From a virus, in the IMG/VR virus record IMGVR_UViG_3300014208_000031, positions 64,001-128,000 of that record: a stretch of 64,000 nt of DNA. The stretch is one strand, 5' to 3'. Below the pieces are notes generated by a model, which ran no database searches, was not told the DNA's origin, and saw nothing but the letters and a program-made list of their open reading frames with translations. Below, one piece after another: positions 1 through 17,379 of this stretch; the stretch's first letter is position 1, and every line of letters starts with the position of its first letter. The position numbers and the translations under genes were made by a program.

Positions 1-3000
1 GCGAATTCTGGGAACATAATTTTAGGAGTATCAGTAGACGAACAATCTATACGTTCGGCTGAAAATAGAATTCGTGGGTTAATTAAAGGTAATCAAGCAA
101 TTAACCTTAAAGTCAATACAACTGGACTTGGTAGAATTAGTAGTGATGTAGCCCAATTTTCCAAATCGCTAGAAAGTGCGCAGGCAAGAACTTTGGCATT
201 CGTTTCTGCTACTACATTATTATATGGAGTTGGTACTGCCGTAAAATCTATCGCGAGCGCATTTATCGAAACGGAGGCCCGGTTCAAATCAATTCAAATT
301 GTCCTTAATACAACTACACAAAAATTTGACAAATTTAAATCTTCTTTATTTGATATAGCTCGTAACACCGGAAAATCCTTCGAGGAAGCGGCTTCGGCGG
401 CAGAAGAACTGGCGCGCCAAGGTCTAAAAGTAGAAGAAGTTCAAAATAGAGTTAACGCAGCTTTAATATTATCTCGGCAATCAGGATTAGGAACGGCGGA
501 GGCAGTAAAAGCTCTAACTGCTGCAACCAACTCATTTAATAAATCTGCTTTAGATCAAATTGGTATTGTTAATAAGTTAGCAAATGTTGATGCTAACTTT
601 GCTGTATCTTCAAAGGATTTAGTTGAATCACTATCTCGCGCAGGCGCTACCGCACAAGACGCTGGTATTAGTTTTGAGAAATTACTATCTTTAACCGCTT
701 CACTTCAGCAAACAACCGCGCGCGGCGGTGCTGTCATTGGTAACGCTTTAAGATCAATATTTACTAGAATTGAACGGGGTTCTACATTAGATGCACTTCA
801 ACAATTTGGTGTTGCAACAAGAGACTTGCAAGGAAATGTTTTAGCTGTTGACCAAGTATTAAAAAATCTAGCTAATACTTATAAAACATTGAGTCAAGCT
901 GAACAGGCTGCGCTATCCGAAAAAGTCGCAGGCATTCAACAAATTAACCAATTAAAAGCTTTGTTAAGTGATTTAAGTAAGGGTAATTCAATCTATGCAC
1001 AGTCTTTAGCTGTCTCCACCGAAGAAACAAACTCTGCTATCGAAAGAAATAAGGCTTTAAATCAGACTTTACAAACAAACTTAAATGCTATTAAAACAAC
1101 TGCTACTCAATTTAGTTCGGTTTTTGGTAAACTAGTATTTCAACCAACGATTAAAGGCGGCGCGGACTTTGCGCAAAATGTTTTAGGCTCTTTAAACAAT
1201 CAAGATCAAGATAGTAAATCCGCCGGACAGAAACTCGCCGAAGGATTTTTAAGTGGATTTGGAAAAGCGTTAGCTGGCCCCGGCGCGGTTATTGGTATTA
1301 GTGCTATTGTTAATGTAGTAAAACAATTAGGTAAATTTTCTTTTAGTGTTTTAAGTGATTACGCAGCTTTAAATAGTGCTTCTAAATCTCAGGGTTCTAT
1401 TCAAAATGCTATAAATCAAATTTTAGCTACTGGTAATGGTAAATATATTGAAAGATTGGCCCGCGCCCGCTCAATTAAGGAAGAAGAGTTAGCCATTAAA
1501 AGTATAATGTTAGAAATTAACGCTTTGCAAGTTCAGCAAGGAGCGCGAAACTTTAGTGCTGTTCAAAATATTGCTAGAAATAGAGGCGGAGTTACACCTG
1601 AAGGTAGTTTTAAAATACCACGGGCGTCCGGCGGATTTCTTCCTGTGAATCAAGAACAAAATGATATAAATCGGGGTGTCGGCGGGGCATCGCGTTCGGC
1701 CCGGCCTAAAGTTATTCCAAACTTTAATTTCGGCGGAGGCAAAAGAGGAACAGTTGTAGCTAACACTGATGAATATATTGTTCCTAATTTTGGAGGTTCT
1801 GATGGGTCGGCAATATTTAATCAACAAATGGTGGCTAGACATGGATTACCTAGTAATGCTAGAAAAATAAATGCGTCCGGCGGACTTATACCAAATTATA
1901 ATGAATTCAAAGGTTATCCTGAATTTAAAACTCCTAAAATTGGTCGGGGCGGATATTCTGGAATGGTCGGTATTGATTGGAAAAGCGTTTTAAGATATAT
2001 TAGTCCTAATCAATTTTTAGAATCTGCCTTACCATTGGATTCAAGAATTAGAGATGAAAAATCTATTAGTAATATTAGAAATAGAATACAAAAAGGACAA
2101 GAAATTGATCCGGGTTATTTACGTTTAGAAAGAGATAGAAAATCTCGGCGCGGAATCACCGGACACGAAGGGCGACATAGGGCGACAGCCGCGCTTTTGG
2201 AAGGCGTTCAAGACTTTCCAGTAGAATTTGATATTAAAGATTTTGGCCGCGCGCCAAGTTTATATCAGGATGGTAAAATTGAAGAAATATTGGCTCAAAA
2301 ATATTACCCAGAAGCAACAATGACTGGAAATCTTAGTGGATTCGACAACAAAGTAAGACCGGTTCAATTTAATTTTAGACGCGGCGGAAACAGATTATTA
2401 AGTCAATTTTCGCGCGGACTTATTCCCAATTACTTCAACAAATACAACAAACAAGAAGCAAATTATAATGGAGCTTTAATTGATAAAGATTATAAATATA
2501 TTTACGCAGACCAAAACGAAGCAATCAGTAAAAGTAAAAGGTTAGCCGCGCGGGCTAAGGGTTTTGAATTATTGAATCCAGATGACGTTAATTTTCTAGC
2601 TAGAAATGAAGAAATACTAAAAGGCCATAAATTAAAAATAATTGATCCAACTGCTCAACTTACCAAGAATGGAACTGGCAGTTTTCTAAATATTTTATCA
2701 GCTAATTCTTTCAAAGGCGATAAATATAATGAAGCCAGATTATTAAAATTAGGAAAAGTTTCTCCACTGGCGGGGTTTTTGAAATCTAGAGGAATAAGTA
2801 ATCAAAATTTTTTAAAAGCTAAAAAAGCTATTGCACAAAAATTTGGAAATAATTTTTTCATTAAAGCAAAAGAAGGCGGCGGCTCAAATTTTGAAGAAAG
2901 TAATGAAGTATTTTCATCTAATAAAGGTATTTCAAAATTAAAAGATATTGACCCAGAACAATATTATATTCAAGAGGGAATTAAAAATACTACAGGGCTA

Positions 3001-6000
3001 GAATATCGAGTTAATTTAGCTGGCGTGGGTAAAGGTGCTCAAGTATTGGGTCGCGGAGCTTATATTAAAGATGAATATAAAGAAGTCGATCCAAATTTAA
3101 GCGATGCTCCTTCAAGTTTAATTTCAGCGGTTAAATCTGGACGAATTGAAGATTATTTAAAATCTCAAATAGCTATTAGACAAGCGAAACAAGTATTATT
3201 GAATGCCCCGGAAAGAGTCCGGCGCGGCTCAATTACAGGATTTGACGTTTTAGAAACCAACAAAAGTGGATTAGGACTGCTTGGACAGTATTTAGGAATA
3301 GGAAAGGGTGGCGGAGTTGTCGAAGCAAACTTTAGCCAAGACGACCAAGGAAAAGGTCAAGCTGGATATTCTGGATATTTAGACAAATTAGGAGTTTTAA
3401 TTCCGGCGGCTCAAGCTTTGATTAAAAACAATGGAGGATTTGCTGGTGGATTAATTCCCAATTTCAATTTATCTAATAGTCTATTAAATGCCGGAGTAGG
3501 ATTAGATGATAAAGCTAAATTATTAGCACAAATATTGGGCGGATCAAACAGTCCATTAAAAACCGCTATAAACAGAGAGAAAAACGCTGGAATTCCATTA
3601 GATCAGATAAAAGTAGAAAATCATCCAAGTTTAGTGTCCGGCGCGAATCCGGGCGGACTGGCTGTAACTAATAAAATTGATGAACCGGGCGGAATATCTC
3701 AGGGAATATCTCGCGCGATTAAAGAAGGTAGAAATCCTAAAACTTACGGAGCAAGTAAGGGATTGATTCCGAATTATGCTTTACCAAAACCCCCAACTTT
3801 ACTTTCTGGCGCTCCCGCCGCACTACAAGAAGAATTTTTACAAGAATTGTTAAGAGAATTTGCTAAAAAAGCCGCTCTAGAAAATCAAAAAGGATTTTTT
3901 AGTGGAAGAAAATCTGGTAAAATATTAAAAGATTTTGAACAAGAATTAAAGGCGTCGCCGGGATTTGCTAGATTGGGTCAAGCTTCGCAAGATAGATTTG
4001 ATCTAGAAACGTCTAATGTTCAAGCGGCACAGGCAGACAGACGTAGAGGAAAAGTTCAAGGAGCGGCTTTTACAGCGGCTATCGGAGCGCCCATTTTAAC
4101 TAATGCTTTAACATCTTTATCTCCAGCAAATGATAAAACATCCAGACAAATTAACGCGGTTGGAGAATCCGCCGGAACTGGATTAAGTTTGGCTGCAACA
4201 TTCGGATTTAGTCCTTTTGGCATTGCCGTCGGCGCGGCTACTACAGCTTTAGGTTCATTAAGAGGAATAGCTGATGCTAGTAGAAAAAGTTTAGAAGATT
4301 TAACTAAAGAAGTTGATGATACGCGCGGGACATTTGAAGGAAATAAAAATGCCTCGGCTGGTGTGTTTCAAGGCCGTGAACAACTAAAAGATTTAATAAA
4401 TTCTGGAGCTTCAAGTAAAGAAATAGATTTAGTTTCAAGAAACATTCAAGATTTAATTACTTCGATTGATGATCCAAGTTTAAGAAACAAAGTGGTCGGA
4501 GCTAAAACTAACGATGAGCAACTTAATATTTTAGCAGAAATTTCGTCAGCCCAAGCCAAAGCTGTTGCAGAAAAAGGTATAGGAGTGGGTCTAGAATCTA
4601 TAATTGGTAAAAATCGTGATATTTTTAAAGACAAATTTGGCGATACACAAAATATTCTGCTTAATAAACAAGATAGAACAGATGTAACTAGCTTAATTAG
4701 AAGTGCTTTACCCTTAGAGTCAGATGCAACTAAACGCACCGGACAAATTAAGGGTTTAGAAGATTTAAATACCAAGGGAGATTTTGGTTTAGAAAGTTTA
4801 CAACGTGTGCTAGGCACACTAAATATTAGTTCCGACGCCTTAAAACAATTTAATCAATTAGCATTAATCGAACAAGAACTTATTGTTAAAAACGTTGTTC
4901 AACGAAACTTGTCCGCCGATGCGCTCAGAAAAGAAAATGAGAATCTAAAAGTTTATACTCAGTCGGTGGTAAATCTAGGAAGACTACTAGATAAATTACA
5001 AACTTCAACAAATTTTAAATTTGATTTAGGTAATATTAGAGATTCTGGAACTAGAAATCGCGCGTTATCCGGGGCAAATCAAGCTTTAGGGACTTTAGGT
5101 AATTTTATTACTCCTGAATCTCAAAATAGATTTGAAAATAGAAATAAAGAGTTTGAGATTAAAAATGAATTAATAACTAGCACTAACGACATTAGTAAAA
5201 GTTTTATTAACAGTTTTGATTCTTTACCAAGTTTAGTTGAAGAAGCTTTTAAGAAATTCACTACCGGAAACGGAGAAGGCGAAGGTAAAAATATTTCCGG
5301 AAAATCTGAATCATTAAAAAATACTTTACAACAATTAAGAGCAAATGTTTTAGCTGCCGGCGGCAATCCAGTTGACGCAGCAAATTCTGGCGTTGAAAAA
5401 ATAAACGAACAAATTAAATTACTTGGAGGACAAGACGGTAAATTAAATAAACCCTTAATTGACGCTCTAATCAAATTTAGAGACGAGGGGTTGAGCATTC
5501 CTGTGGAGTTAGCCCGCGCTCAAAGTGAGGAAGCAAGACTTTTACAAGCTAATACCAACAAACTTAACGAACTAAACCTTTCTATAACAAAACAATTAAG
5601 TTTCCTCGGCGGACGAAGCTTTAAGGATTTACCGTCCGCGGACTTCAGTGATATTAAAGGTGGTTTAAGTCAAGGAAAAACAATTAGAGATTCAATTAAC
5701 GGACCTTTTAGTAAAAGAATATTTAAATCGCGCGGATCAAGTTTCCAAGATTTCTTCCAAGGTCAACAAATTGATGAAGAAGCGGAAAACTCTCGTCGTG
5801 GAAATGTATTTTCTAAATTGGCGGGCGGAAAACTTCAAGCTTTTAAAGAAGGATTTTTAGATGGAAATCCCGAACAAATTAACCAAGCAAGATTTGAAGT
5901 TGCGAAAGCTTACGAAGCCAGACAAACAGAAACTTTAGATAAATTAATTAAAGATGCTCAAAATTCTGGAGATTTTGAATTCGCAGATCAATTAAGAAGT

Positions 6001-7971
6001 AAAAAAACAGGGGTGTCTGGAAATGCAGCACTTTTAGCGGCGAAAGACATTCCGTTTGATCAAAAAAACTTAAATACTCCCTTCGGCCCGGAAGGCGCGT
6101 TTAAAGAGTTAAGTGCTAGTTTAACCGGATTAAAAACTAGTTTTGACGCTGGGATAACAGGTAATTTTAATTTATTATTTGACAATTCTAAAACGGCGGC
6201 AAGCGCATTACTTGATTTAGCTAAAGCAACTAAAGAAGTAAGTGATATTAATGCTGTTGCTGCAAAAAATATAGAAATGGTAGCATTAAATGAGCAAAAG
6301 AAAGAGTTAGAGGGTAAAAAACTTGGCTTATTACAATCTCAAACAGCAAAAGACGAAGAAAATAAATCATTTTTTCAACAACTAGATAAAACTGCGCCGT
6401 CAAAAAGTTTGTTTGGTAGAAGATTAGATGAAAAAGCTGTTGGGGCAGAATTAGGAATTGATCCACAACAAATTCGTAGGTTTAACGATTTTGGACAACA
6501 ATATGCTAATCAAAAAGATTCTAAATTCACAGATTATTCTAGGAACGTTGGCGGATTAGGATTTAATGAACAACAATTAGGCTCTTTATATGATAAACAA
6601 TTTCAACCGGATCAAAATCATTTTAAAAATCCTGAATTAGAGAAATTACAAAGAGATGCTGTTGACAGAGATAAGAGAAAAACTTTAAATTATGTTTATT
6701 CAACCAATCAGCAATTAGGTAATACTCCAAATAATCAATCAGAAATTAAAAAACTACAAGATCAAATAGATGAATTACAAAGACAATTAGATGAAAAAAA
6801 TAAACCTGAAAATAAAGCCGCCGGATATATTCCTAAATATGCGGGCGGATTAATCAGTTCATTAAAAGCCGAACAAAAAGCTATTAGTTCTGGAGTCGGT
6901 GGTGCGCGAGCGGGCGATAAACCCTATCTAACGCAAATTAAAGGATTAGGCCCGGCGGTTGTTAACACTGGAGAATCTATAATAAGAAACTTTGCAGGTG
7001 GCGGAGATGCAGTATTAAACAGAAAGATGAAAAAATCTTTAGGTATAAATAATTACGCCGACGGAAATATTGATTTATCTAAATTATCTGAAAAAGATAT
7101 AAGATATGGAGATAATATCGTAGCAAATGATGAATTGAGTAGATTAGCCGCTGCCTATAAAAAAGATGGAATTGAAGGGGTCAAAAGATGTATTGCTATT
7201 TTAAATAGTGGTAATGAAAATTTAGTTGCTAATAAAGCTGGAGGGTACTTTGGAGATGAAGAAATTGATAAATTTTATCAAGAATCTTTAAGAATTAAAG
7301 GTGTTAATCGTTTCGATAAAAATCGTTTTCAAAATTATACTAACCGGGAAAGAAAAAATAATTTCGGCGGAAGCAAAATATTTGGAGACGATTTTAATAA
7401 CCAGTCTAATATATTTAATTCTCAATTTGCTGGTAGCTCACAATACAAAGGAATAGATATTCAAGAAAGAATTAGAAACCAAGGCAGCGCATTTAGCCCA
7501 GTCTCAATTCAATCGTCCGGTGGATTACGTTCAGGTAGTCTCCAAGGACCGCAAAGATACGGCTCGCGCGAACTTAATTCTGATGAAATCGAAAGAGATG
7601 CTAGAAGAAATAGCGGAAGAAATCAAAATAGATATGATAGAAATGTTGGCCGCGCGACGAATGAAGTTGATTCTCTTAAAAAGGAATTAGAAGATTTAAG
7701 AAATAAAGTTGGTCAACAAAATAATAATACTACAAATAATTCACAAAATTCTGTTAATAATAGTGAGAAAAATGGACCCATAGATGTTTCCCATACTATT
7801 AAAATCGAAATTAACGGAAATATAACTGCTAAAACTGACGCGCAGACCGCCGTGATAAACGAAGAACTTGCAAATTTTAAAACAAGGGTTGAGGCTCGTT
7901 TGGCTTCCCTTGAGGCCGCAACTCCGGGGGCAAAACCCGTGCCTCCCATTGCAAATCGCGGGGCTAGTTAA
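1..7971 (+). CDS. Tail tape measure protein (TP901 family) with internal cargo domains; 5' end lies outside the window
   Basis: Frame 1 is open from base 1 (ANSGNIILGVSVDEQ...). The N-terminus has TP901/PhageMin_Tail-like sequence (ELARQGL, LANVDANFAVSSKDL, GAVIGNALRSIFTRI). A hydrophobic segment lies at about 4050-4260 and there are long helical regions. It precedes the tail-tip genes. Confidence 0.9.
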   Translation, partial: ANSGNIILGVSVDEQSIRSAENRIRGLIKGNQAINLKVNTTGLGRISSDVAQFSKSLESAQARTLAFVSATTLLYGVGTAVKSIASAFIETEARFKSIQIVLNTTTQKFDKFKSSLFDIARNTGKSFEEAASAAEELARQGLKVEEVQNRVNAALILSRQSGLGTAEAVKALTAATNSFNKSALDQIGIVNKLANVDANFAVSSKDLVESLSRAGATAQDAGISFEKLLSLTASLQQTTARGGAVIGNALRSIFTRIERGSTLDALQQFGVATRDLQGNVLAVDQVLKNLANTYKTLSQAEQAALSEKVAGIQQINQLKALLSDLSKGNSIYAQSLAVSTEETNSAIERNKALNQTLQTNLNAIKTTATQFSSVFGKLVFQPTIKGGADFAQNVLGSLNNQDQDSKSAGQKLAEGFLSGFGKALAGPGAVIGISAIVNVVKQLGKFSFSVLSDYAALNSASKSQGSIQNAINQILATGNGKYIERLARARSIKEEELAIKSIMLEINALQVQQGARNFSAVQNIARNRGGVTPEGSFKIPRASGGFLPVNQEQNDINRGVGGASRSARPKVIPNFNFGGGKRGTVVANTDEYIVPNFGGSDGSAIFNQQMVARHGLPSNARKINASGGLIPNYNEFKGYPEFKTPKIGRGGYSGMVGIDWKSVLRYISPNQFLESALPLDSRIRDEKSISNIRNRIQKGQEIDPGYLRLERDRKSRRGITGHEGRHRATAALLEGVQDFPVEFDIKDFGRAPSLYQDGKIEEILAQKYYPEATMTGNLSGFDNKVRPVQFNFRRGGNRLLSQFSRGLIPNYFNKYNKQEANYNGALIDKDYKYIYADQNEAISKSKRLAARAKGFELLNPDDVNFLARNEEILKGHKLKIIDPTAQLTKNGTGSFLNILSANSFKGDKYNEARLLKLGKVSPLAGFLKSRGISNQNFLKAKKAIAQKFGNNFFIKAKEGGGSNFEESNEVFSSNKGISKLKDIDPEQYYIQEGIKNTTGLEYRVNLAGVGKGAQVLGRGAYIKDEYKEVDPNLSDAPSSLISAVKSGRIEDYLKSQIAIRQAKQVLLNAPERVRRGSITGFDVLETNKSGLGLLGQYLGIGKGGGVVEANFSQDDQGKGQAGYSGYLDKLGVLIPAAQALIKNNGGFAGGLIPNFNLSNSLLNAGVGLDDKAKLLAQILGGSNSPLKTAINREKNAGIPLDQIKVENHPSLVSGANPGGLAVTNKIDEPGGISQGISRAIKEGRNPKTYGASKGLIPNYALPKPPTLLSGAPAALQEEFLQELLREFAKKAALENQKGFFSGRKSGKILKDFEQELKASPGFARLGQASQDRFDLETSNVQAAQADRRRGKVQGAAFTAAIGAPILTNALTSLSPANDKTSRQINAVGESAGTGLSLAATFGFSPFGIAVGAATTALGSLRGIADASRKSLEDLTKEVDDTRGTFEGNKNASAGVFQGREQLKDLINSGASSKEIDLVSRNIQDLITSIDDPSLRNKVVGAKTNDEQLNILAEISSAQAKAVAEKGIGVGLESIIGKNRDIFKDKFGDTQNILLNKQDRTDVTSLIRSALPLESDATKRTGQIKGLEDLNTKGDFGLESLQRVLGTLNISSDALKQFNQLALIEQELIVKNVVQRNLSADALRKENENLKVYTQSVVNLGRLLDKLQTSTNFKFDLGNIRDSGTRNRALSGANQALGTLGNFITPESQNRFENRNKEFEIKNELITSTNDISKSFINSFDSLPSLVEEAFKKFTTGNGEGEGKNISGKSESLKNTLQQLRANVLAAGGNPVDAANSGVEKINEQIKLLGGQDGKLNKPLIDALIKFRDEGLSIPVELARAQSEEARLLQANTNKLNELNLSITKQLSFLGGRSFKDLPSADFSDIKGGLSQGKTIRDSINGPFSKRIFKSRGSSFQDFFQGQQIDEEAENSRRGNVFSKLAGGKLQAFKEGFLDGNPEQINQARFEVAKAYEARQTETLDKLIKDAQNSGDFEFADQLRSKKTGVSGNAALLAAKDIPFDQKNLNTPFGPEGAFKELSASLTGLKTSFDAGITGNFNLLFDNSKTAASALLDLAKATKEVSDINAVAAKNIEMVALNEQKKELEGKKLGLLQSQTAKDEENKSFFQQLDKTAPSKSLFGRRLDEKAVGAELGIDPQQIRRFNDFGQQYANQKDSKFTDYSRNVGGLGFNEQQLGSLYDKQFQPDQNHFKNPELEKLQRDAVDRDKRKTLNYVYSTNQQLGNTPNNQSEIKKLQDQIDELQRQLDEKNKPENKAAGYIPKYAGGLISSLKAEQKAISSGVGGARAGDKPYLTQIKGLGPAVVNTGESIIRNFAGGGDAVLNRKMKKSLGINNYADGNIDLSKLSEKDIRYGDNIVANDELSRLAAAYKKDGIEGVKRCIAILNSGNENLVANKAGGYFGDEEIDKFYQESLRIKGVNRFDKNRFQNYTNRERKNNFGGSKIFGDDFNNQSNIFNSQFAGSSQYKGIDIQERIRNQGSAFSPVSIQSSGGLRSGSLQGPQRYGSRELNSDEIERDARRNSGRNQNRYDRNVGRATNEVDSLKKELEDLRNKVGQQNNNTTNNSQNSVNNSEKNGPIDVSHTIKIEINGNITAKTDAQTAVINEELANFKTRVEARLASLEAATPGAKPVPPIANRGAS

Positions 7972-7973
7972 AT

Positions 7974-7981
7974 AGTGTAAA
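7974..7981 (+). promoter_or_regulatory. AGTGTAAA motif (putative late promoter), followed by AGGAATAAG
   Basis: The same motif recurs upstream of genes at 10762, 12857, 38711 and 55468 (+), and at 10719, 41424, 45755 and 60282 (-). Confidence 0.6.
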
Positions 7982-8014: not shown

Positions 8015-9661
8015 ATGTTAAGCTTTAGCGGGGCTAGTCTACTTTCACAAAATCGTCAAAATCAATTTTTTGGCGACAGTTTTAGATATGCGATCAAAGA
8101 TTCATACACAATAAACGGATATTTATTGGACTTAAAAAACGTTTCTGGGATTTCTGGGATATTAACTCAGTTGAGCGGTATGAGTTTAGAAACGCAAGAT
8201 AACCAAATTATTTTAATTAATGGAACGTACTTTGGCCTTGGCCGGATAAACAGCCTAAATTTTGCAGAAGGGGTAGATGTCAAATTAAAAAATTATACTT
8301 GTAATTTTGATATAATCAACTCTGGAAATACGTTTAATTTGCCGACAGAGCCACTTTATTCTGGCTTAGTATTAAATAATTCTAGTTATAGCGCACATTT
8401 TATTGATGAATTTAGTGAAAATTTTTCGTCTGAAGTCTCGGAAGACGGGTCATATACGGAAAATCAAGTAATTAAACTACGCTTCTATTCGGGTATTGAC
8501 GGGACTACAAAAAATCCAATAACAATGGCGCAAAATTTTGCTTCCAATCTTATCTTAACAAATGCTCCAGTGGGTTTTATAGATAGTTTTTATTCAGGCT
8601 GGCGCAGACAGCCGGGCCGCCGACAAAGACAAGAAAGTATTAATCTTATTACTAACGAAGTTAGTATTACCGAAACATTTAAAATATTAAAAGGGATTAG
8701 TGGAACTTATTCTATTAATTATATTAATAGTTTAAATGTAAATGAAAATTCAATAACCACAGTATCAGAAAAAGGACGAGTTCAAGGATTAATACCGGAT
8801 AGTAGAAATCAATATTTCCCGGCGGCTTATTCCGGCGAACAATATGAAGTAAATAATTTTTCTTATTTGCGCTGTAATAATCTATTTAATTCTTATCAAT
8901 TAGGTAGTAGTTATCCATTAAATTCTCGACGGCTAACTTATGGTCAAAGTTTGAATAAATTTAGTGATACTGTAGATTATGAGGTTTCTTACTCAAATGA
9001 TCCACGAACTAACAATTCTTACTCTTGGGAATATACTCAAAATATTGAAAGAGAAAATGGTGGATGTACTTATAGTATCTCCGAAGACGGTCAAGTAATT
9101 GGACTAAGTACCAATTGTGATCCAGCCGCGCGATATTTAAACGCTTTAACTGCTTACAGCGGAGTAAAAACGGGAGTTTATTTAAGAACTTATAATTTTT
9201 ATACCGGATTTAGTACTTTTGCTAATCCAATTAAATTAATTAATCAAAGTGAAACAAAAAGTAAATTTAATGGAGATATAAAATATCAATTTAACTATTC
9301 CGATAACCTTTTATACTCGACTAGCGGAGTCAAAAAAATGAGTATTAGTTTAACGGACGATCATGCTACGCCCGGTAAAAATCTTTTTGACATACCATCG
9401 GTCAAGCAAATAGCACAGCCAAATAATATACCTAATTTAGCAAAAAGATCATTAGAATTGGAAATTATAGGAAACCGTGGAACCAATCTTACGGGATACT
9501 TAAATTTAGCAAAAAATACTATAAATTTATATCCGCCTACCGGAACAGACGGTTATATTAGTAATTTAAATTACAGTTTCGCGCCTCTCACTAACACGTT
9601 TAATATATCAACGGAATGGGCTTACGAAGAGTCAATTAACTTAAACCAATTTATTTTATAA
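8015..9661 (+). CDS. Putative tail/baseplate structural protein (paralog of 10798..12858)
   Basis: Directly follows the TMP. Beta-rich, S/T/N/Y-rich, with segmental similarity to the 686-aa protein. Confidence 0.6.
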   Translation: MLSFSGASLLSQNRQNQFFGDSFRYAIKDSYTINGYLLDLKNVSGISGILTQLSGMSLETQDNQIILINGTYFGLGRINSLNFAEGVDVKLKNYTCNFDIINSGNTFNLPTEPLYSGLVLNNSSYSAHFIDEFSENFSSEVSEDGSYTENQVIKLRFYSGIDGTTKNPITMAQNFASNLILTNAPVGFIDSFYSGWRRQPGRRQRQESINLITNEVSITETFKILKGISGTYSINYINSLNVNENSITTVSEKGRVQGLIPDSRNQYFPAAYSGEQYEVNNFSYLRCNNLFNSYQLGSSYPLNSRRLTYGQSLNKFSDTVDYEVSYSNDPRTNNSYSWEYTQNIERENGGCTYSISEDGQVIGLSTNCDPAARYLNALTAYSGVKTGVYLRTYNFYTGFSTFANPIKLINQSETKSKFNGDIKYQFNYSDNLLYSTSGVKKMSISLTDDHATPGKNLFDIPSVKQIAQPNNIPNLAKRSLELEIIGNRGTNLTGYLNLAKNTINLYPPTGTDGYISNLNYSFAPLTNTFNISTEWAYEESINLNQFIL

Positions 9662-10537
9662 AACTGGATTTACGTTTATTTCTTTCACCCATTCAAATTC
9701 CGCTGGATTCGGCCAAGTTTGAATTAAATCGAGAAGTTGTTGTTTAGATTTGATTTTAGGAATATTCTGTGCGCGTTGCCCATCTGGTAGAATATCATTC
9801 TTAACAGAATTTTTATTATTGGAAAGTGGTCTTAAATTTTTATAGTAAGTAACCATAAATTGGGGTTCTAAAAATGCAAAATCAAATAAAGTTACTGGAA
9901 TTATATGGTCAAAAACCCATAATTTATCTTTACCATAATTTTCCCAAGTCATATTGTTGTTGAATTGATTTTCGATATAACTTCTACATTCTTTTAATCC
10001 TATTCCTAATAGGTTTTTTGAGTTTTTGTATAATTTTTTATTTTTTCTAATAACAGCAGAAATATGTCTAACGCATTTCATAATTTTAAATTCGGGTTCA
10101 GAAGATTTTATTCTTAGCCTTTTTCGTTCTCTTTCTCTAACTTTTTGTTTATTTTTCTTTTTATATGTTTTAATATCTTCGTTAACACATTTTTTACATT
10201 TAGCTCTATATCTTTTTGTATCTCTAATAATTCTTTTTATATAAAATTCATCAACTAATTTTATTACATTACAACATATGCAAATTTTTTCTGTAGGTTC
10301 AATATAAAATTTTTGGCCTTTAATTGTTGGTAGTGGCAAATTATTTTTAATATATTTATTTTCATAGTATTGTTTACTGCTACAATCTTTACATTTACTT
10401 TTTAGTATATTGTTTCCAGATAGAGAAAAACTGGAAAGCTCTAAAACTTTTTCGCATGTTTTACAAAATTTGTATCCATCTAGACAACAAAATTCATGTT
10501 TATTATAAATAAATTTTTGATGGTTATTCTGGACCAT
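9656..10537 (-). CDS. HNH/EndoVII-like homing endonuclease with N-terminal CxxC zinc-finger repeats
   Basis: CKTC...CKDC and CICC...CKKC pairs. C-terminal YIENQF...MTWENYG...WVFDHIIP...NLRPL...N.VKND. Inverted relative to its neighbours. Confidence 0.8.
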   Translation of the reverse strand: MVQNNHQKFIYNKHEFCCLDGYKFCKTCEKVLELSSFSLSGNNILKSKCKDCSSKQYYENKYIKNNLPLPTIKGQKFYIEPTEKICICCNVIKLVDEFYIKRIIRDTKRYRAKCKKCVNEDIKTYKKKNKQKVRERERKRLRIKSSEPEFKIMKCVRHISAVIRKNKKLYKNSKNLLGIGLKECRSYIENQFNNNMTWENYGKDKLWVFDHIIPVTLFDFAFLEPQFMVTYYKNLRPLSNNKNSVKNDILPDGQRAQNIPKIKSKQQLLDLIQTWPNPAEFEWVKEINVNPVL

Positions 10538-10673
10538 AATTCAATAATTCAATTGCTTTTCTAATTAACTCTGAAATTGTATAGCCCGTTTTCTCACTTA
10601 ATTTCTTTAATTTTTCTTTTTGATGTTCAAATATTTGATAATCCGCGCGGATAAGTTTAGGTTTTTGATTCAT
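10524..10673 (-). CDS. Small ribbon-helix-helix (CopG/Arc-like) DNA-binding protein, not in the ORF track
   Basis: Hand translation: MNQKPKLIRADYQIFEHQKEKLKKLSEKTGYTISELIRKAIELLNYGPE (49 aa). The L..LS..TG.TISELIR.AI pattern is typical of RHH proteins. Overlaps the HNH start. Confidence 0.75.
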   Translation of the reverse strand: MNQKPKLIRADYQIFEHQKEKLKKLSEKTGYTISELIRKAIELLNYGPE

Positions 10674-10797
10674 ACGTTTATTTCTTAGTTAATTTAATTG
10701 TTATCTATTACTATATACTTTACACTAAAAAATAAAGAAAAATGTAAATTTTATTTTAAAAAGTGTAAAATTATAATAAACACAGGAATAAGAACAA

Positions 10798-12858
10798 ATG
10801 ATTGAAATTTATTATGGAGGGAGTGGAATATTGGCGTATCCGACTGGATACCCCAAACCTTTATTTAGTGAAACTGAAAACGCTGTAAGGTACGGGGGAA
10901 AGTGGTGTACTACGACCACAATTACTCTAAACGGCCAATTGTCCGGTTGTACATACGATGCAATCCAAACTGCTAAATCCAGACTAGAGAATATTTATAG
11001 CAAAGATTTTCAAAGCTTATTAATAATTCAAGACGGGCGGACTTATTATGATAGTTATTATAATATCATTAGAGAAATTGATTTTCAACAATCTAGATAT
11101 ATTGGATTGCTTGATTATAGTGTTAGTTTAGAGAGTTATCCGCGCGAACTTTTTAGTGGCTATTTCGGCGTAATAGAGCCGGTTAATGAATGGAATTTTT
11201 CTGAAGATAACAATCAGTTATTAATTGTTAACCATAGAGTATCAGCTAAGGGAATTCAGACATCTAATAGCTATAGTAACTCTTTTGATAATGCAAAAAA
11301 TTATGTATTATCGTTAACGGGTTCTAGCAGTTTTATTTCCCCATATTTTACAAATCACTGCACCGGAGTTTCTCTATGTTTGGATACTTTTAGCGAAAAC
11401 ATAGATAGATTTAATTGCACGTTCGGAATCGAAGAAAAATATTATTTAGACCCATTAGCAGAAGGATCAATTTCTCCAATAATTGAATCTATATCTGGCG
11501 AATATGCATCTGTAAGTATAAGTATTTCACCAGTAGTTGATGGAGATACGTTTCTTGCTTCTTATACGGATAATGGAATAACTACCACAATAAATATAGA
11601 ATTTGATAATAATTCTAGTTTGAATAATCCATCATATACATTACTAGATATTGGTATTGGAGGCGATCCGCTTGATTATGGAGAGAGTCTAGCTAACACT
11701 ATAAACCTAATTCTAACTAATGCTGTTTGTAGTTTTAATTCTTCTAATAGCTTACTAACTCTTATTTCAAATAACCAAAGTAGTTTAATTTCCGTTAATT
11801 TAAATGGAACTAGTGACACTGGAGTAACTGAAGTAATAGGAACTCCAGCTAGTATTGTTTATAATAATAGGCATGGATATATAAGATATACCACAGATTA
11901 TAGTTGTGATGCATTGCGAGGCGCGGCGACTTTATCAATCAATGGTGAAGTTAAATCTTGTAAAAATGTTGATTTAGATACTTTACGGTCTAAGTATCAG
12001 TCTTTTGATGTTTATTCGGCGGCTGTCCGCGCGTATTATGAATCGTGTGGTCGATTAGATTTAAATAGAAATTTTTTATTCAGCGGGATTACCGAGGATC
12101 AATTTAGCAAAAAAATCAATTTTAATGTTAGTTTTGATAATGATTTTAACCCGCGCACATTTTTAGAGTATGAAACTTCAATAAAATTGGACGACCAAGA
12201 TATAACCACGGTTGGCGTAAAAGGAACGATTAAGTCTCGCGGGGACTTAAAAAATAAATATTCTTTAGTAGAAAATTACTACAACACTCAACTTAATTTA
12301 TATTATTTAGCTTATCAAAGCTATAATGAATTTTATAATAACGCGCCGGTCTACCCACTGAGAAATCAGCAGTTAAACTATTCAATAAGTAAAAATCAAT
12401 TTGTTGGAGAAATCAGTGTTTCAACAGAGTACGATAATAAAGATTTAATACCGCCAGAATTTCAAAGTTTAGATTATAATATTTCTGTTACCCCCGCTAT
12501 TCGTCAAATTAGAGCATTGCCACTTGTTAAGTTGGATTCGCCTAGCTTATGTTCTGGGAACTGGTATTGTAGCGATCTAGGATTTAATAATAGGGCTCAA
12601 ATACAAATCGCGGGCCGTGCGGTTGGAACATGCACTGGCAACGCAACGACCACTCTAACTGGAATTCGTAATTTAGGAAATTACTGGTTAACTAATTTAT
12701 ATAATAATGATAGAACATTTCTAGATAAAAATTCTATAGTCCAAACTAACGAAGGAAAAGGGAATTCATTTTCGTTTAATTTCGGATGGTCATTTGACGC
12801 AACGCAGTCTGCAAATACCAGTCCTTGGAATTGGATTGAAACATTAAGTCTAAAATAG
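10798..12858 (+). CDS. Putative tail/baseplate structural protein with an internal insertion
   Basis: In the tail module, preceded by AGTGTAAA and AGGAATAAG. Resembles 8015..9661. Confidence 0.6.
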   Translation: MIEIYYGGSGILAYPTGYPKPLFSETENAVRYGGKWCTTTTITLNGQLSGCTYDAIQTAKSRLENIYSKDFQSLLIIQDGRTYYDSYYNIIREIDFQQSRYIGLLDYSVSLESYPRELFSGYFGVIEPVNEWNFSEDNNQLLIVNHRVSAKGIQTSNSYSNSFDNAKNYVLSLTGSSSFISPYFTNHCTGVSLCLDTFSENIDRFNCTFGIEEKYYLDPLAEGSISPIIESISGEYASVSISISPVVDGDTFLASYTDNGITTTINIEFDNNSSLNNPSYTLLDIGIGGDPLDYGESLANTINLILTNAVCSFNSSNSLLTLISNNQSSLISVNLNGTSDTGVTEVIGTPASIVYNNRHGYIRYTTDYSCDALRGAATLSINGEVKSCKNVDLDTLRSKYQSFDVYSAAVRAYYESCGRLDLNRNFLFSGITEDQFSKKINFNVSFDNDFNPRTFLEYETSIKLDDQDITTVGVKGTIKSRGDLKNKYSLVENYYNTQLNLYYLAYQSYNEFYNNAPVYPLRNQQLNYSISKNQFVGEISVSTEYDNKDLIPPEFQSLDYNISVTPAIRQIRALPLVKLDSPSLCSGNWYCSDLGFNNRAQIQIAGRAVGTCTGNATTTLTGIRNLGNYWLTNLYNNDRTFLDKNSIVQTNEGKGNSFSFNFGWSFDATQSANTSPWNWIETLSLK

Positions 12859-12895
12859 TGTAAAGATAATCCAGGAATAAGAAAATTTTAATTGA

Positions 12896-14638
12896 ATGAA
12901 CCCCACAGGAGTCCAATATTTTACACATAGCGATAAAACGAATACGAGCGGCCAGCTACAAGTATTTTATGCATTTACGGGCGGTTCTGGAACTCATATT
13001 ATCCCCAGTTTACCTTTTGGTAAGTCCGCGTATTCAGGATTTATAGATAATACTGGATCGTTTTATGATGTTTCTGGAAGCGGATTTTTCGGAGGTCAAA
13101 CTAGTATTCGAGTAAATAATGCTTCCGGGCTTTCTAGTCAAACTTGGAGTATGATTATTGATTATAAAATTTCAGGCGGACAGAATAACGTGCTTTTCTC
13201 CAACTATTCGTCTGGAACTATAAATAGCGGATGGATAATAGGTGTTAACGATGCGAATTCAGTATACCTGGAATATTATTCTAATCAAGGTCCGCAAATT
13301 TTAATATCTAACACTACATACGGAACACAAAATACAATAGTTATTACTAAGAATAATTCCGCAATAAATTTAGATTATTTAGATTATAATACAAAATCTT
13401 TAATTTCAGAAAATTTTTCAATTGATCCTGTATATTTTTTACCTAGTGACAATTGGTATATTGGAGCGAGCACGGGAACCCCCGGATATTATTCTGGACA
13501 AAAATATAAGGGGTTTATGGATTACTGGCTTTATTTTGCACCAGCACTTTTACCAAGTCAAAAATTAGGTGTTTTATCAGGATTATATTGTGATATAACT
13601 AATCCAATTCAAACAATTAGTTCTTATACTACTAGTTTGGTTACGGGGCAAACTACTGGATTAGTGAGTATATTTACTGGAACTACTGGGGAAGCAAACG
13701 AATTCTACAATTATATTACGGGTGCATGTAATTCAATTCATGCTGTATACTCGGGTATTAATTTAACCGGTTTCGTGTATGATATTGGAACGGTTCCTCT
13801 AACTCAAACAATTACTACATACATAACTGGAATTACAGGCGGCGGACCGATTGAGAATAGCGGATATTCTATTAGTCATGGATTTAATGCGGTTAGCTAT
13901 CTAAAAGAAATAAATGCGACGGACATCTCAGAGCTATATTATTTTCCTCGATCTACTAATAAAATAAATATCAATAACGAATTATCTTTCGACTTTACAT
14001 TAAATAAATTTATTTTACCATCTCAATATAATATTAATCAAATTAATTTTTATATTAATTCAGTGGGACAATTTGGCAGTGGTTATAACGTAACTGGAGA
14101 TTTTTATAATTTAACGATAGATAAAAGCGGTATGTATTTTGTTTCTGGAAATTATTTATCTGGAGATTATCAAGGTAATGATACTAATATTATTGATATA
14201 ATCAGCGGAAATAGAGTTTTTAACACGGGATTTTGGGTATTAAACAATAACACTGGTATATCTGGGATGGGATTACCAAACTCGTTAGTATTTTTGGGTG
14301 GACAAAAACTTAAAAGTGGACTAGACTATAGAATATCTGGAACGGATTTAATTTTAAATAATTCTTATTGGTATGATACTATAGATAGTGGAAGATATTG
14401 GAGTGCGCCGATTGATACTGAAAGTAGTTTTACTTCTGGAGTTTGGAATAACTTAGATTTAAATTCTGGTTATTTTGCCCGTGGAACCACACAGTTATGG
14501 ATGAATGGCGTGAGAGAGAACTTAAACGATGATTATATTGAAATTAGTCATTTATCTTTACTCAATAACTCTGGACACTATTTAGATAATTTAAATAATA
14601 TTTTTATTAGTGATTTAGGATTTTTAGAAAGTATATAA
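12896..14638 (+). CDS. Virion protein with an N-terminal LamG/concanavalin A-like domain
   Basis: WSMIIDY...VLFSNY...GWIIGVND...WYIG...YKGFMDYW...L is a LamG-like pattern. SG/TG-rich. Confidence 0.6.
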   Translation: MNPTGVQYFTHSDKTNTSGQLQVFYAFTGGSGTHIIPSLPFGKSAYSGFIDNTGSFYDVSGSGFFGGQTSIRVNNASGLSSQTWSMIIDYKISGGQNNVLFSNYSSGTINSGWIIGVNDANSVYLEYYSNQGPQILISNTTYGTQNTIVITKNNSAINLDYLDYNTKSLISENFSIDPVYFLPSDNWYIGASTGTPGYYSGQKYKGFMDYWLYFAPALLPSQKLGVLSGLYCDITNPIQTISSYTTSLVTGQTTGLVSIFTGTTGEANEFYNYITGACNSIHAVYSGINLTGFVYDIGTVPLTQTITTYITGITGGGPIENSGYSISHGFNAVSYLKEINATDISELYYFPRSTNKININNELSFDFTLNKFILPSQYNINQINFYINSVGQFGSGYNVTGDFYNLTIDKSGMYFVSGNYLSGDYQGNDTNIIDIISGNRVFNTGFWVLNNNTGISGMGLPNSLVFLGGQKLKSGLDYRISGTDLILNNSYWYDTIDSGRYWSAPIDTESSFTSGVWNNLDLNSGYFARGTTQLWMNGVRENLNDDYIEISHLSLLNNSGHYLDNLNNIFISDLGFLESI

Positions 14639-14649
14639 ATTAATTTAAT

Positions 14650-17364
14650 ATGGCTATACATTCCGTCCCACAAATTCAGATCAACGGTTCAAACAAAATT
14701 TTTAACTCTTATCCTTATAGTCTTAGGTATCAAATCAGTTATGGTGAATCTCCATCTACATTACAAATTTCAATGGTTTCGGAGGACGGAAAATATGATA
14801 TTAATGCAGGTACTTTGGTTAATACTTACTGCACCCCATATAATATATCCATAGTAGGTAGTCAAATATCCTTGGACATGTATCTAGAAGATATAAACCT
14901 AAGAGTGTCCCCGGCGGGCAATATATTAGATTTAAGTTTTGTGGATACAAGCGTGATTTTAGATACTATTCATGTGGGATTATATAAACGGCATGGCTTA
15001 ACTTCTACAAATAATCTAATTATAGTAGGTAAGGAGATTAGCCCATGTTCAGATGATCCTTATGGTAATCCTTCTCCTTCTACATTTTTTGATCCATGTC
15101 ATCCATGTTTAACGTCTGAACAGCAGAATACGACAGCTAATCTTATTGACTGTATAGAAAAAGCTAAATATGAGATTCTAGATGTTAAATATAATTTTTC
15201 CGATTTGTTATCGAGTGTGAGAAATAAGATTTCACTTATAAACGCTATTGACCCTAATCCTAAATATTTATCACAGTATACAGGTTCTTTACGAGATGTA
15301 TTAAATTCATGGTGTAGAGATTTTGGATGGTTCTTTTATTGGAATAACGGCTCGGTAGTTTTTAAGGATTTAAGAAATACTATTAATGTAAATTCTGATA
15401 TAGAAAATTTCTGTCCTAATGTTTTAGAATATAATGTTAGTTATTCTATGAAAGAGTCCGTGAAAACTGCGACTATTACTAATTTTAGTAGACCTGGCGA
15501 TCCTGCTAAATTATATACTTGTCAAGAAGCTAGATATTTAGTGGCTAGTTCGCTAACTAGTAGTAACGCTTTTTCTATGCCACTAACTATTAGTCCAGAA
15601 ATAGATAGAGTGGCCGCCGGGCTCTCTTATTATAACGAAGATTTAAGAGATTTATATTACTTTTATACAAAATATCAGATGTATAATGAAGGAAACTTCC
15701 GAATTGGGAAAAGATTGGAAAAGTTAGGCTTAACTATTCTATCTAATGTTATTAAAATGGATTCCGGCGGCTCGAATGCTAAACCACTTGATGATGCTAA
15801 TACTCCTAGCGGAGCAACGGAAGCTTCAGATAGTAAAGTCTCTATTGATCCATTTGCGTCAGAAAATGCAGATTTATTAGAAATGAGTTCATTAACTACT
15901 AAGGCTGAATCTATACGAAATAATTCAGATTTTTATGAATGTGTAAGGATGTTAGATTTTGAAACTCAATGGAAAATTATAGAAAATCCTGGTAATTATT
16001 TCTTTTTTTTCGGAGAGCAAAATGAAAGTTTAAATAAATATTATCTAGATGAAGAAAGAGAATTCGCCGGATTTCTACATAAATATGCTGTTTATGTTCC
16101 AGATTCAAATGATACATTTTTTGAAGAGTATGATTTTCAGCTAACTAATTTATGTGGAGTAAATTACTTTGTAAATACCGGAAATGTTTCCTACAACTTT
16201 TTAGGGGATAATATGGGTAATATAACGTTTTATAATACTTCATCGAAAGGCAATTCTGCCGGAGACGGAACCCAGATTGGTGAATTACCCTTTTCAAAAT
16301 TTCTTTCAGTTATAAGAGATTCTAAAAATAGACAGGGTAGTTCTTCCAGTTATCTCATTCCTTTTAAGCTAATAGTAGCAGAAAGGGGAAGAAATACTTT
16401 CGTTCCAGACGGAGCCACACAATCAACTGGCGGATTTTCATCAATACGAGATTATTATTTATTGGATAAGGTAAAAAAATATTTACCATATAAAATTGCT
16501 AATAAAAATAATATACGTGGAGAATATTTATCTAGAAAGCTAGGCGCAGGTGCCAGTTCGGTTAGTAGCGATGTCTCTTTATTTATTGGGCGAGTTACTT
16601 CGGCGGACGATTTTAGATTGACTGAAATTAACGGATTTAATAATTTAGCTAGTCCGGGAACATTATTTGATGGCAAACCTATAAACCAAGAACAAGACCC
16701 ATCAAATCAAACGACAAAAATAGTTTATCAATACCCAGATTTAAAATGTAAAATAGTAGGTAATAATAGCTTCGGAAGTACCTCTGCTTTACATGCAAAA
16801 AAAATAGTCTTTAGGACTCCACTAACTTCTTTTGAGTATACTGAACCCACGGATTCGTTATTCGGAATTATTATAGAAAAAACTACCAAGAAAAAAAGAA
16901 TTATTAAAAAAGTAGAATCATTTAATTCAACTAATTTATCATCAGGAGCTACTTCTTGTAATTTTGCTAAATTAATAGTAAATAATACAAACATTTCGGA
17001 CGATACATTGCGAGTTTTAAAGAAAAGTAATAGTGTGTGCCAGTTTGATACTAAAACTATTCAAAAAATACATGATGATTTTTCTAACAATTTAGCATTA
17101 AATTATACACAACCAACAATTACTAAATCATTCAAGGTCGCCGGGATTGAATTAAATGGATATTACCCTAGTATAGATAACGGTCTAATTAGTTTACAAA
17201 TTGGACTAGATTCTTCTAATGGAGTTTATGCTGAATATGAATTTGGGACTAGACTAATGAGACTGCCTAATAGTAGTGTTTTAGATTATAATAGTATTAA
17301 TATGTCCTTAACTCACGGAAGTTATACAAATACTGTTAATAACTATCCACTAGTTATGAAATAA
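14650..17364 (+). CDS. Putative baseplate hub / tail-tip protein
   Basis: 904 aa in the tail module. Contains a YTGSLRDVLNSWCRDFGWFFYW hub-like segment. Confidence 0.5.
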   Translation: MAIHSVPQIQINGSNKIFNSYPYSLRYQISYGESPSTLQISMVSEDGKYDINAGTLVNTYCTPYNISIVGSQISLDMYLEDINLRVSPAGNILDLSFVDTSVILDTIHVGLYKRHGLTSTNNLIIVGKEISPCSDDPYGNPSPSTFFDPCHPCLTSEQQNTTANLIDCIEKAKYEILDVKYNFSDLLSSVRNKISLINAIDPNPKYLSQYTGSLRDVLNSWCRDFGWFFYWNNGSVVFKDLRNTINVNSDIENFCPNVLEYNVSYSMKESVKTATITNFSRPGDPAKLYTCQEARYLVASSLTSSNAFSMPLTISPEIDRVAAGLSYYNEDLRDLYYFYTKYQMYNEGNFRIGKRLEKLGLTILSNVIKMDSGGSNAKPLDDANTPSGATEASDSKVSIDPFASENADLLEMSSLTTKAESIRNNSDFYECVRMLDFETQWKIIENPGNYFFFFGEQNESLNKYYLDEEREFAGFLHKYAVYVPDSNDTFFEEYDFQLTNLCGVNYFVNTGNVSYNFLGDNMGNITFYNTSSKGNSAGDGTQIGELPFSKFLSVIRDSKNRQGSSSSYLIPFKLIVAERGRNTFVPDGATQSTGGFSSIRDYYLLDKVKKYLPYKIANKNNIRGEYLSRKLGAGASSVSSDVSLFIGRVTSADDFRLTEINGFNNLASPGTLFDGKPINQEQDPSNQTTKIVYQYPDLKCKIVGNNSFGSTSALHAKKIVFRTPLTSFEYTEPTDSLFGIIIEKTTKKKRIIKKVESFNSTNLSSGATSCNFAKLIVNNTNISDDTLRVLKKSNSVCQFDTKTIQKIHDDFSNNLALNYTQPTITKSFKVAGIELNGYYPSIDNGLISLQIGLDSSNGVYAEYEFGTRLMRLPNSSVLDYNSINMSLTHGSYTNTVNNYPLVMK

Positions 17365-17379
17365 ATATAGGTATTAAGT

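Follow-up and report, generated by a model that had tools for sequence, protein, structure and literature searches.

The tape measure gene and its embedded module

The stretch of DNA analysed here (the window) spans 64 kb (bases 64001-128000) of an IMG/VR phage record of 167,664 bp, judged complete by CheckV; the phage is uncultured. At the start of the window, on the plus strand, lies the gene of a giant tape measure protein, which carries behind its N-terminal core a predicted ligase module of the ATP-grasp fold (Table 1). Frame 1 is open without interruption over window positions 1-7971 and the full-length product has 2657 residues; residues are numbered here by the translation of the window (P0001, 2656 residues), to which one is added for the full-length protein. 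The N-terminal part is that of a tape measure by both Pfam and PHROGs (PF10145, E = 7.4e-30; phrog_4211, E = 1.5e-53), and tblastn with residues 1-540 leads to genes annotated as tape measures in phages of Lactococcus and Faecalibacterium. The segment in which an earlier note on this DNA had recognized ligase motifs thus lies within a genuine tape measure protein, as that note had proposed. As modelled, residues 829-1149 form a complete ATP-grasp module that retains the residues binding ATP and magnesium, together with the Arg of amide ligases.

Short motifs of the form GxIPN[YF] recur at module borders across all relatives of the protein. These apparent linkers are best regarded as conserved module ends, because they are located at the borders of a module of about 90 residues that is repeated three times. 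The repeat occupies window positions 1642-1920, 3538-3795 and 6823-7056 (plus strand), carries the patterns E..AI..GVGGA, G.AVVNT.E.IV.NF.GG and AIFN..M, and starts or ends with G-x-IPN-[YF]. It is arranged alike in two of the relatives (P0004 and P0007) and matched no known family.

Motifs and catalytic residues

All five ATP-grasp motifs listed in the earlier note are present, in canonical order and inside one open reading frame (ORF; frame 1, plus strand), at positions differing by at most 6 nt from those first given: FFIKAKEGGGS (residue 952, nucleotide 2854), YYIQEGI (988, 2962), EYRVN (1001, 3001), GFDVL (1080, 3238) and VVEAN (1106, 3316). With a permissive pattern that requires all five motifs in their canonical order and spacing, the six-frame translation of the window yields a single match, and 5000 shuffles of the 2656-residue protein yield none. 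Chance coincidence of the motifs is ruled out by these shuffles together with the fold evidence.

The ATP-grasp template comprises a linker Lys between the pre-ATP-grasp and RAGNYA subdomains, a Lys ending RAGNYA strand 2, an acidic residue in kinase-like strand 4 and an ExN ending the last conserved strand; an Arg in the first kinase-like strand is typical of amide-bond-forming ATP-grasp ligases (PMC4431377, section 5). A glycine loop of about nine residues, ssxGbGl, lies between RAGNYA strands 2 and 3 (PMC4431377). In the AlphaFold2 model of the module, K908, K955, D1082, E1108/N1110 and R1003 each fall on the secondary-structure element that the template requires. The motif residues, which the earlier note expected to be conserved among homologues, are indeed invariant: K955, Q991, E1001, R1003, D1082, E1108 and N1110, as well as K908, which the note had not listed, are identical in seven distinct sequences at 33-45% identity. 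Eight of the eight template positions lie among the 39 invariant of 339 alignment columns (hypergeometric probability 1.5e-8). Unlike RimK, the family carries between the metal-binding Asp and the ExN a glycine-rich insert of its own, 20-25 residues long (ETGN..GQ..KGGG), which ends in an invariant KGGG. The earlier description of the domain as apparently intact stands for the catalytic positions, all of them conserved, and for the fold, which is complete in the model; it is to be qualified for the glycine loop and the loop at residues 1024-1035, both of which have diverged further in this copy than in its relatives.

Table 1. Coordinates of the tape measure gene, its modules and the catalytic positions of the ATP-grasp module (window positions).
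Feature	Residues	Position	Strand	Basis and remarks
Tape measure protein gene		1..7971	+	Single ORF; ATG 3 nt upstream of window (L002:11998)
PhageMin_Tail (PF10145) core	120-311	358..933	+	Pfam match
Inserted 170-residue module with GHEGRHR	636-806	1906..2418	+	BLAST segment map and alignment; lineage-specific
GLIPNY motif	806-811	2416..2433	+	Directly precedes ATP-grasp module; same motif family in relatives
ATP-grasp module (predicted)	829-1149 (model residues 18-338)	2485..3447	+	AlphaFold2 model and structure searches; pre-ATP-grasp, RAGNYA/central and kinase-like subdomains
Linker Lys (GDK)	K908	2722..2724	+	Invariant; aligns with DK of E. coli RimK (RDKLRS) by hhalign; start of model helix 97-104
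Lys at end of FFIK strand, with glycine-rich loop AKEGGGS	K955	2863..2886	+	K955 invariant; aligns with K of RimK LVVK; strand 141-145, then loop of low pLDDT
Gln of YYIQE, hinge strand (adenine side)	Q991	2971..2973	+	Invariant; aligns with RimK LVQEYI
First kinase-like strand, amide-ligase Arg	E1001-Y-R1003	3001..3009	+	E and R invariant; model strand 190-198
Acidic metal ligand of GFDVLET, fourth kinase-like strand	D1082	3244..3246	+	Invariant; model strand 267-273; aligns with RimK GVDIL
KGGGVVEAN: family-specific KGGG, then ExN metal ligands	E1108-x-N1110	3304..3330	+	K, GGG, E and N invariant; strand 295-299; aligns with RimK VMEVN
GGLIPNF motif	1149-1155	3445..3465	+	Directly follows ATP-grasp module
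Conserved module of about 115 residues	1150-1265	3448..3795	+	Invariant RE, DEP, QGI-R and NP..PN[FY]A

Predicted fold

AlphaFold2, run on a seven-row alignment, gave a model with a mean predicted local distance difference test score (pLDDT) of 71.3 and a predicted template modelling score of 0.72. Structural comparison of the model, the check that the earlier note had called for, returned the ATP-grasp fold and no other among the matches listed: Foldseek found 368 PDB matches at E <= 1e-3, and the best 50 of the 368 are all ATP-grasp proteins, among them biotin carboxylase, tubulin tyrosine ligase (TTL), D-Ala-D-Ala ligase (Ddl), LysX/ArgX and ITPK1. A search independent of Foldseek, over 48,161 representative chains, likewise placed ATP-grasp proteins in all of its best 50 positions. 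The VIA-align Z scores are 11.7 for BacD, 10.9-11.3 for LysX, 11.0 for PurK, about 10-11 for Ddl and 10.0-10.2 for RimK. Other users of the fold follow, with the kinase ITPK1 at 9.4-9.5 and the ligases PsnB, MdnC and AMdnB, which act on graspetides and other ribosomally synthesized and post-translationally modified peptides (RiPPs), at 7.8-8.2. The alignments take in 230-257 residues and, because they span model residues 18-338, cover all three ATP-grasp subdomains. Matches in BFVD (viral) and the ESM Atlas are again ATP-grasp proteins, stand-alone phage ones included; in the Atlas, the neighbours belong to the Ddl-like, CPSase-like and Ter-operon groups of ATP-grasp proteins, with an R2K cluster among them, and language-model neighbours belong to viral RimK, Ddl, TTL and R2K clusters.

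Among the closest characterized enzymes are RimK (the glutamate ligase of ribosomal protein S6) and LysX/ArgX, ATP-grasp ligases by which protein C-termini are extended with amino acids (PDB 4iwx, 5zct, 5k2m, 3vpd). They share the three-part fold (Z 10-11.3 over 230-243 residues) and a collinear series of motifs (GH.L.I.DP, DK, hhhK plus glycine loop, hQE, [DE]xR, GhDh, hhExN), and their identity to the module, 16-18%, is the highest among the structural matches. The register of the hhalign alignment with E. coli RimK pairs GHKLKIIDP with GHLVEILDP, GDK with RDK, FFIK with LVVK, YIQE with LVQE, EYRV with DIRC, GFDVL with GVDIL and VVEAN with VMEVN (module first). BacD/YwfE, the D-Ala-D-Ala ligases and PurK have top or tied Z scores (11.7, about 11 and 11.0, respectively) but only 9-14% identity, and they make small molecules in cellular metabolism; the Arg that stands two residues before the Asp in Ddl-type enzymes is missing in the module, which reads TGFD.

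The assignment to a RimK-like family made in the earlier note finds no support. No member matches PF08443 or PF18030, and because the scores of BacD, PurK, LysX, Ddl and RimK are tied (within about 1.5 Z units) the fold does not tell the ATP-grasp subfamily. Unlike RimK, moreover, the module has neither PF08443 nor any other ATP-grasp Pfam match, lacks a RimK-type R-x-N...GG loop, and is embedded in a structural protein of 2657 residues where RimK stands alone. At E <= 10, no ATP-grasp model of Pfam or NCBIfam matches any of the seven aligned members. The family is invisible to sequence models, and is detectable only through fold prediction combined with residue conservation.

Conservation in a family of giant tape measures

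Among 1.84 billion representative proteins, an exhaustive phmmer search brought out eight relatives, comprising six giant tape-measure-like proteins (1959-2938 residues) and two short fragments, and scans of metagenomes and IMG/VR added one further divergent member (L007) on a 183-kb contig. The family so far numbers about seven sequences, all from uncultured phages of 168-220 kb; the relatives lie on contigs of 183-221 kb on which the gene order around the tape measure is conserved, and the present phage has 168 kb. The ATP-grasp follows the N-terminal core likewise in P0003-P0007 and L007. It is also better conserved than the C-terminal helical part, with 42-43% identity in the ATP-grasp segment against 36-38% there (BLAST segment map). 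In the 208-kb soil phage that encodes P0004, the homologous module is 43-45% identical and agrees in its position in the tape measure and its conserved residues; relative to that phage, the present one has an extra 170-residue module (residues 636-806) before the ATP-grasp and more diverged active-site loops.

Beyond this family the module was not met. With the ATP-grasp segment, tblastn matched none of 50,697 deposited phage genomes, no stand-alone relative came up in a profile search at 186-667 residues, and there were no prophage copies in 185,579 prokaryotic species genomes. Searches with PF08443 and PF13535 found no second ATP-grasp gene in the 168-kb genome. In this small family of giant tape measures, which belong to uncultured phages of 168-220 kb, the module is a fixed and ancestral component. 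Because the N-terminal core adjoins the ATP-grasp directly in P0003-P0006 and L007, and the insert at residues 636-806 is confined to this phage and the fragment P0009, the ATP-grasp is to be seen as the conserved cargo of the tape measure family. An intein or mobile insertion is ruled out by the conserved place of the module across divergent relatives.

Comparison with known delivery systems

Tape measures that bear enzyme domains are known from phage T5 (pb2), mycobacteriophage TM4 and phiIPLA35, where the protein with its catalytic domain is ejected into the envelope (PMC6116005), a situation that the gene layout here resembles. The enzymes of those three phages are cofactor-free peptidoglycan hydrolases that act in the wall, whereas the present module is a predicted ATP-dependent ligase. 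Full-text searches of the literature brought up no publication that connects tape measures with an ATP-grasp amidoligase, RimK, glutamylation or related subjects, in agreement with the earlier note, which knew of no ligase domain in such a protein.

The R2K clade, which includes CDC123-like effectors delivered by type VI secretion systems and the phage group R2K.2, offers a likeness of another kind, as its members are peptide ligases for which injection through a machine resembling a phage tail, or use by phages to modify host proteins, has been predicted (Burroughs et al. 2015, PMC4431377). What sets this clade apart is that the linker Lys, in whose place a K/R stands in the strand 2-3 loop, and the glycine-loop motif have both been lost (PMC4431377). 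Membership of the module in it is excluded, since the linker Lys K908 is present and invariant. A K/R stands two residues past K955 in six of the seven family sequences.

Polyvalent proteins of phages and conjugative elements resemble the present protein in uniting several unrelated effector-like modules in one giant polypeptide that is thought to enter with the DNA (Iyer et al. 2017, PMC5512222). The survey that described them has neither an ATP-grasp amidoligase nor a tape measure carrier (PMC5512222), and they carry a processing metallopeptidase, of which none was detected in the tape measure here. On the viral side, the structure is best matched (Foldseek E 2e-6 to 8e-3) by the stand-alone ATP-grasp proteins of Agrobacterium phage Atu_ph07, Pseudomonas phage Bjorn, Tenacibaculum phage pT24 and Cellulophaga phage phi14:2. 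These are free proteins of 240-320 residues with no relation at the sequence level, as phmmer finds only relatives embedded in tape measures.

Proposed function and alternatives

In the explanation that we favour, the module would be a working ATP-dependent ligase that converts a carboxyl group into an acyl-phosphate and then joins it to an amine, and the likeliest product would be a protein or peptide with an added amino acid. The module would form part of the tail, leave it before the DNA does and work in the cytoplasm of the newly infected cell, where ATP is available, with a host or a phage molecule as its target. Incorporation into the tail is probable because the module is translated within the tape measure and no separate candidate late-promoter motif (AGTGTAAA) occurs inside the tape measure ORF. 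As a whole, an active ligase that enters the infected cell together with the tape measure and does its work there is a reading that we put forward tentatively, as quite possible though somewhat short of probable. A bolder form of it appears rather doubtful: the tape measure family would be an enzyme-injection device that delivers an ATP-powered peptide ligase (here with a second, nucleotide-binding module) before the genome and so covalently modifies a component of the host, for instance its translation apparatus or a defence protein, before phage expression, which would make it the first tail-borne ATP-dependent ligase effector. The earlier note had a similar case in mind, in which RimK-like glutamylation of ribosomal proteins would precede the expression of phage genes. 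For a delivered ligase in general there is background in the ejected tape measures with enzyme domains (PMC6116005) and in the ATP-grasp ligases that have been predicted as injected type VI effectors and as phage modifiers of the host (PMC4431377).

Several points weigh against a delivered ligase, some of them physical and others concerning the assignment itself. A folded domain of about 37 kDa is too big for a tail-tube lumen of about 4 nm, and must either travel unfolded or sit elsewhere; the periplasm is without ATP; and that the middle of the tape measure reaches the cytoplasm is something that we infer. The genes next to the tape measure have no recognisable family in Pfam or PHROGs. The hhalign comparison with E. 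coli RimK carries little statistical weight (E = 0.007, probability 5%), and the probability stays low because the RimK profile is shallow, its 116 homologues all being at least 87% identical. Searches of Pfam, NCBIfam, PHROGs and PDB sequences with the ATP-grasp segment, taken up to E 10 and run with a family profile too, gave no useful match, and the matches returned are at chance level (e.g. HIV gp120, E 0.3). With the sequence evidence so weak, the case rests on a medium-confidence structure predicted from seven sequences, and the fold does not fix the chemistry, as it also houses kinases (ITPK1) and carboxylases (PurK). Lastly, the glycine loop reads EGGGSNF here against GAQGxxV in the relatives, and in the loop at residues 1024-1035 an R and a G kept in five relatives are replaced by K and Y; pLDDT is below 50 in both loops.

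Such substrate-side loops, poorly conserved and poorly modelled in the present copy, would suit an ATP-grasp fold that does no ligase chemistry and serves as a nucleotide-binding switch, plug or spacer of the tape measure. Nor was any gene recognised that could supply a substrate or a partner: acidic C-termini occur in only three ORFs of the genome, none of them near the tape measure (genome positions 86177-86449, 128389-128688 and 161901-162392, all on the minus strand and uninformative). Every catalytic position is nevertheless invariant at the divergence given above, including both ExN ligands and the ligase Arg, as expected from purifying selection on catalysis and as a spacer would not need, which leaves a non-catalytic role improbable. 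If the module is catalytic, its chemistry might still be that of a kinase, a carboxylase or a small-molecule ligase forming dipeptides or D-Ala-D-Ala-like products, rather than protein modification. The best Z scores are to BacD, an L-amino-acid dipeptide ligase, and PurK, with Ddl and ITPK1 within 1-2 Z units, and the Atlas neighbours point the same way with their Ddl-like, CPSase-like and Ter-operon members. This alternative overlaps the favoured explanation and differs from it in substrate only. We consider it fairly unlikely in view of the invariant Arg of the amide-ligase clade, of identities that peak with RimK and of an hhalign register with RimK that reaches through the pre-ATP-grasp domain.

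The place of action is a separate matter, and ATP is certainly present when the tail is assembled. A ligase acting in cis in the producer cell could add residues to the tape measure or neighbouring tail proteins, or cross-link their side chains as graspetide macrocyclases do, and then be carried passively or trimmed. That the domain is tethered at a fixed place of the tape measure in every relative, and that a highly conserved module of about 115 residues is always found in the same protein, would fit this, as would the presence of PsnB, MdnC and AMdnB among the structural matches. These RiPP ligases score below the amino-acid ligases, however, the 115-residue module of P0007 lies some 1700 residues from the ATP-grasp (residues 2757-2835), and the fusion goes unexplained, since a stand-alone gene would serve equally; assembly-time action is the likeliest of the rivals, though unlikely in itself. 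A ligase confined to the producer cell would also result if the protein were a polyprotein from which a protease excises the modules between GxIPN[YF] motifs, so that the free enzyme acts there and never enters the virion. The ATP-grasp is exactly bracketed by GLIPNY and GGLIPNF, such motifs stand at module borders in all relatives, and processing into single domains has been proposed for polyvalent proteins (PMC5512222). Pfam-type domain searches, however, detected no protease domain in the tape measure protein, and the motifs are the ends of the threefold repeated module of about 90 residues and not obvious cleavage sites; of the readings weighed here, we regard this one as the least probable.

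What matters about a ligase in this place is the difference from the wall hydrolases of other tape measures, as those need no cofactor whereas an ATP-dependent ligase makes sense only in a cytoplasm, that of the producer or that of the victim. If it works in that of the victim, tape measures would have to be counted with T4 Alt, N4 vRNAP and the polyvalent proteins among the carriers of pre-made effectors, and the means of phage take-over would come to include the post-translational addition of amino acids.

Modules flanking the ATP-grasp

No part of the cargo block is better conserved than the module of about 115 residues directly behind the ATP-grasp, which has 61% identity to P0004, above that of the ATP-grasp itself. 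It accompanies the ATP-grasp in every relative, in P0007 at the far downstream position given above, and has no Pfam match; it is a candidate partner or substrate of the ligase.

The inserted module before the ATP-grasp is seen only in this phage and in P0009, and is absent from P0003-P0006 and L007. It matches neither Pfam nor NCBIfam, and the AlphaFold2 model of residues 636-812 is of low confidence (pLDDT 36). Its pattern of a strand, helices and a G-x-x-R at a helix start would suit a ParB/Srx-like domain, and HEGRH would also fit the HExxH of a peptidase; P0007 has HEGFH in the corresponding slot.

Two hydrophobic glycine-rich stretches, at residues 415-451 (window 1243-1353) and 1352-1424 (4054-4272; both plus strand), flank the cargo block and are candidate membrane-inserting segments of the tape measure.

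The surrounding tail region

Five large genes of 548, 686, 580, 904 and 631 residues follow the tape measure (window 8015-19275, plus strand), and are presumably baseplate or fibre genes. The gene order near the tape measure is common to the 208-kb and 221-kb relatives, and the neighbours match no structural family of Pfam or PHROGs; four of the five large genes were compared with Pfam, three of them also with PHROGs, with no family match. Because these genes match no family, the tail in this lineage of phages lacks structural annotation. A copy of AGTGTAAA stands at window 7974-7981 (plus strand), 3 nt past the tape measure stop and ahead of the next gene (8015). The motif occurs 11 times in the window against 5.5 expected, a weak enrichment at the stringency used.

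The tail region upstream is rich in homing-endonuclease-like genes, which lie 0.3-11 kb before the window (L002:883-1812, 5086-6294 and 6659-7537 on the plus strand; 10732-11718 on the minus strand). The set comprises one GIY-YIG gene, two 'endonuclease' paralogues of phrog_4645 and one HNH gene, the last of which directly precedes the tape measure gene on the opposite strand.

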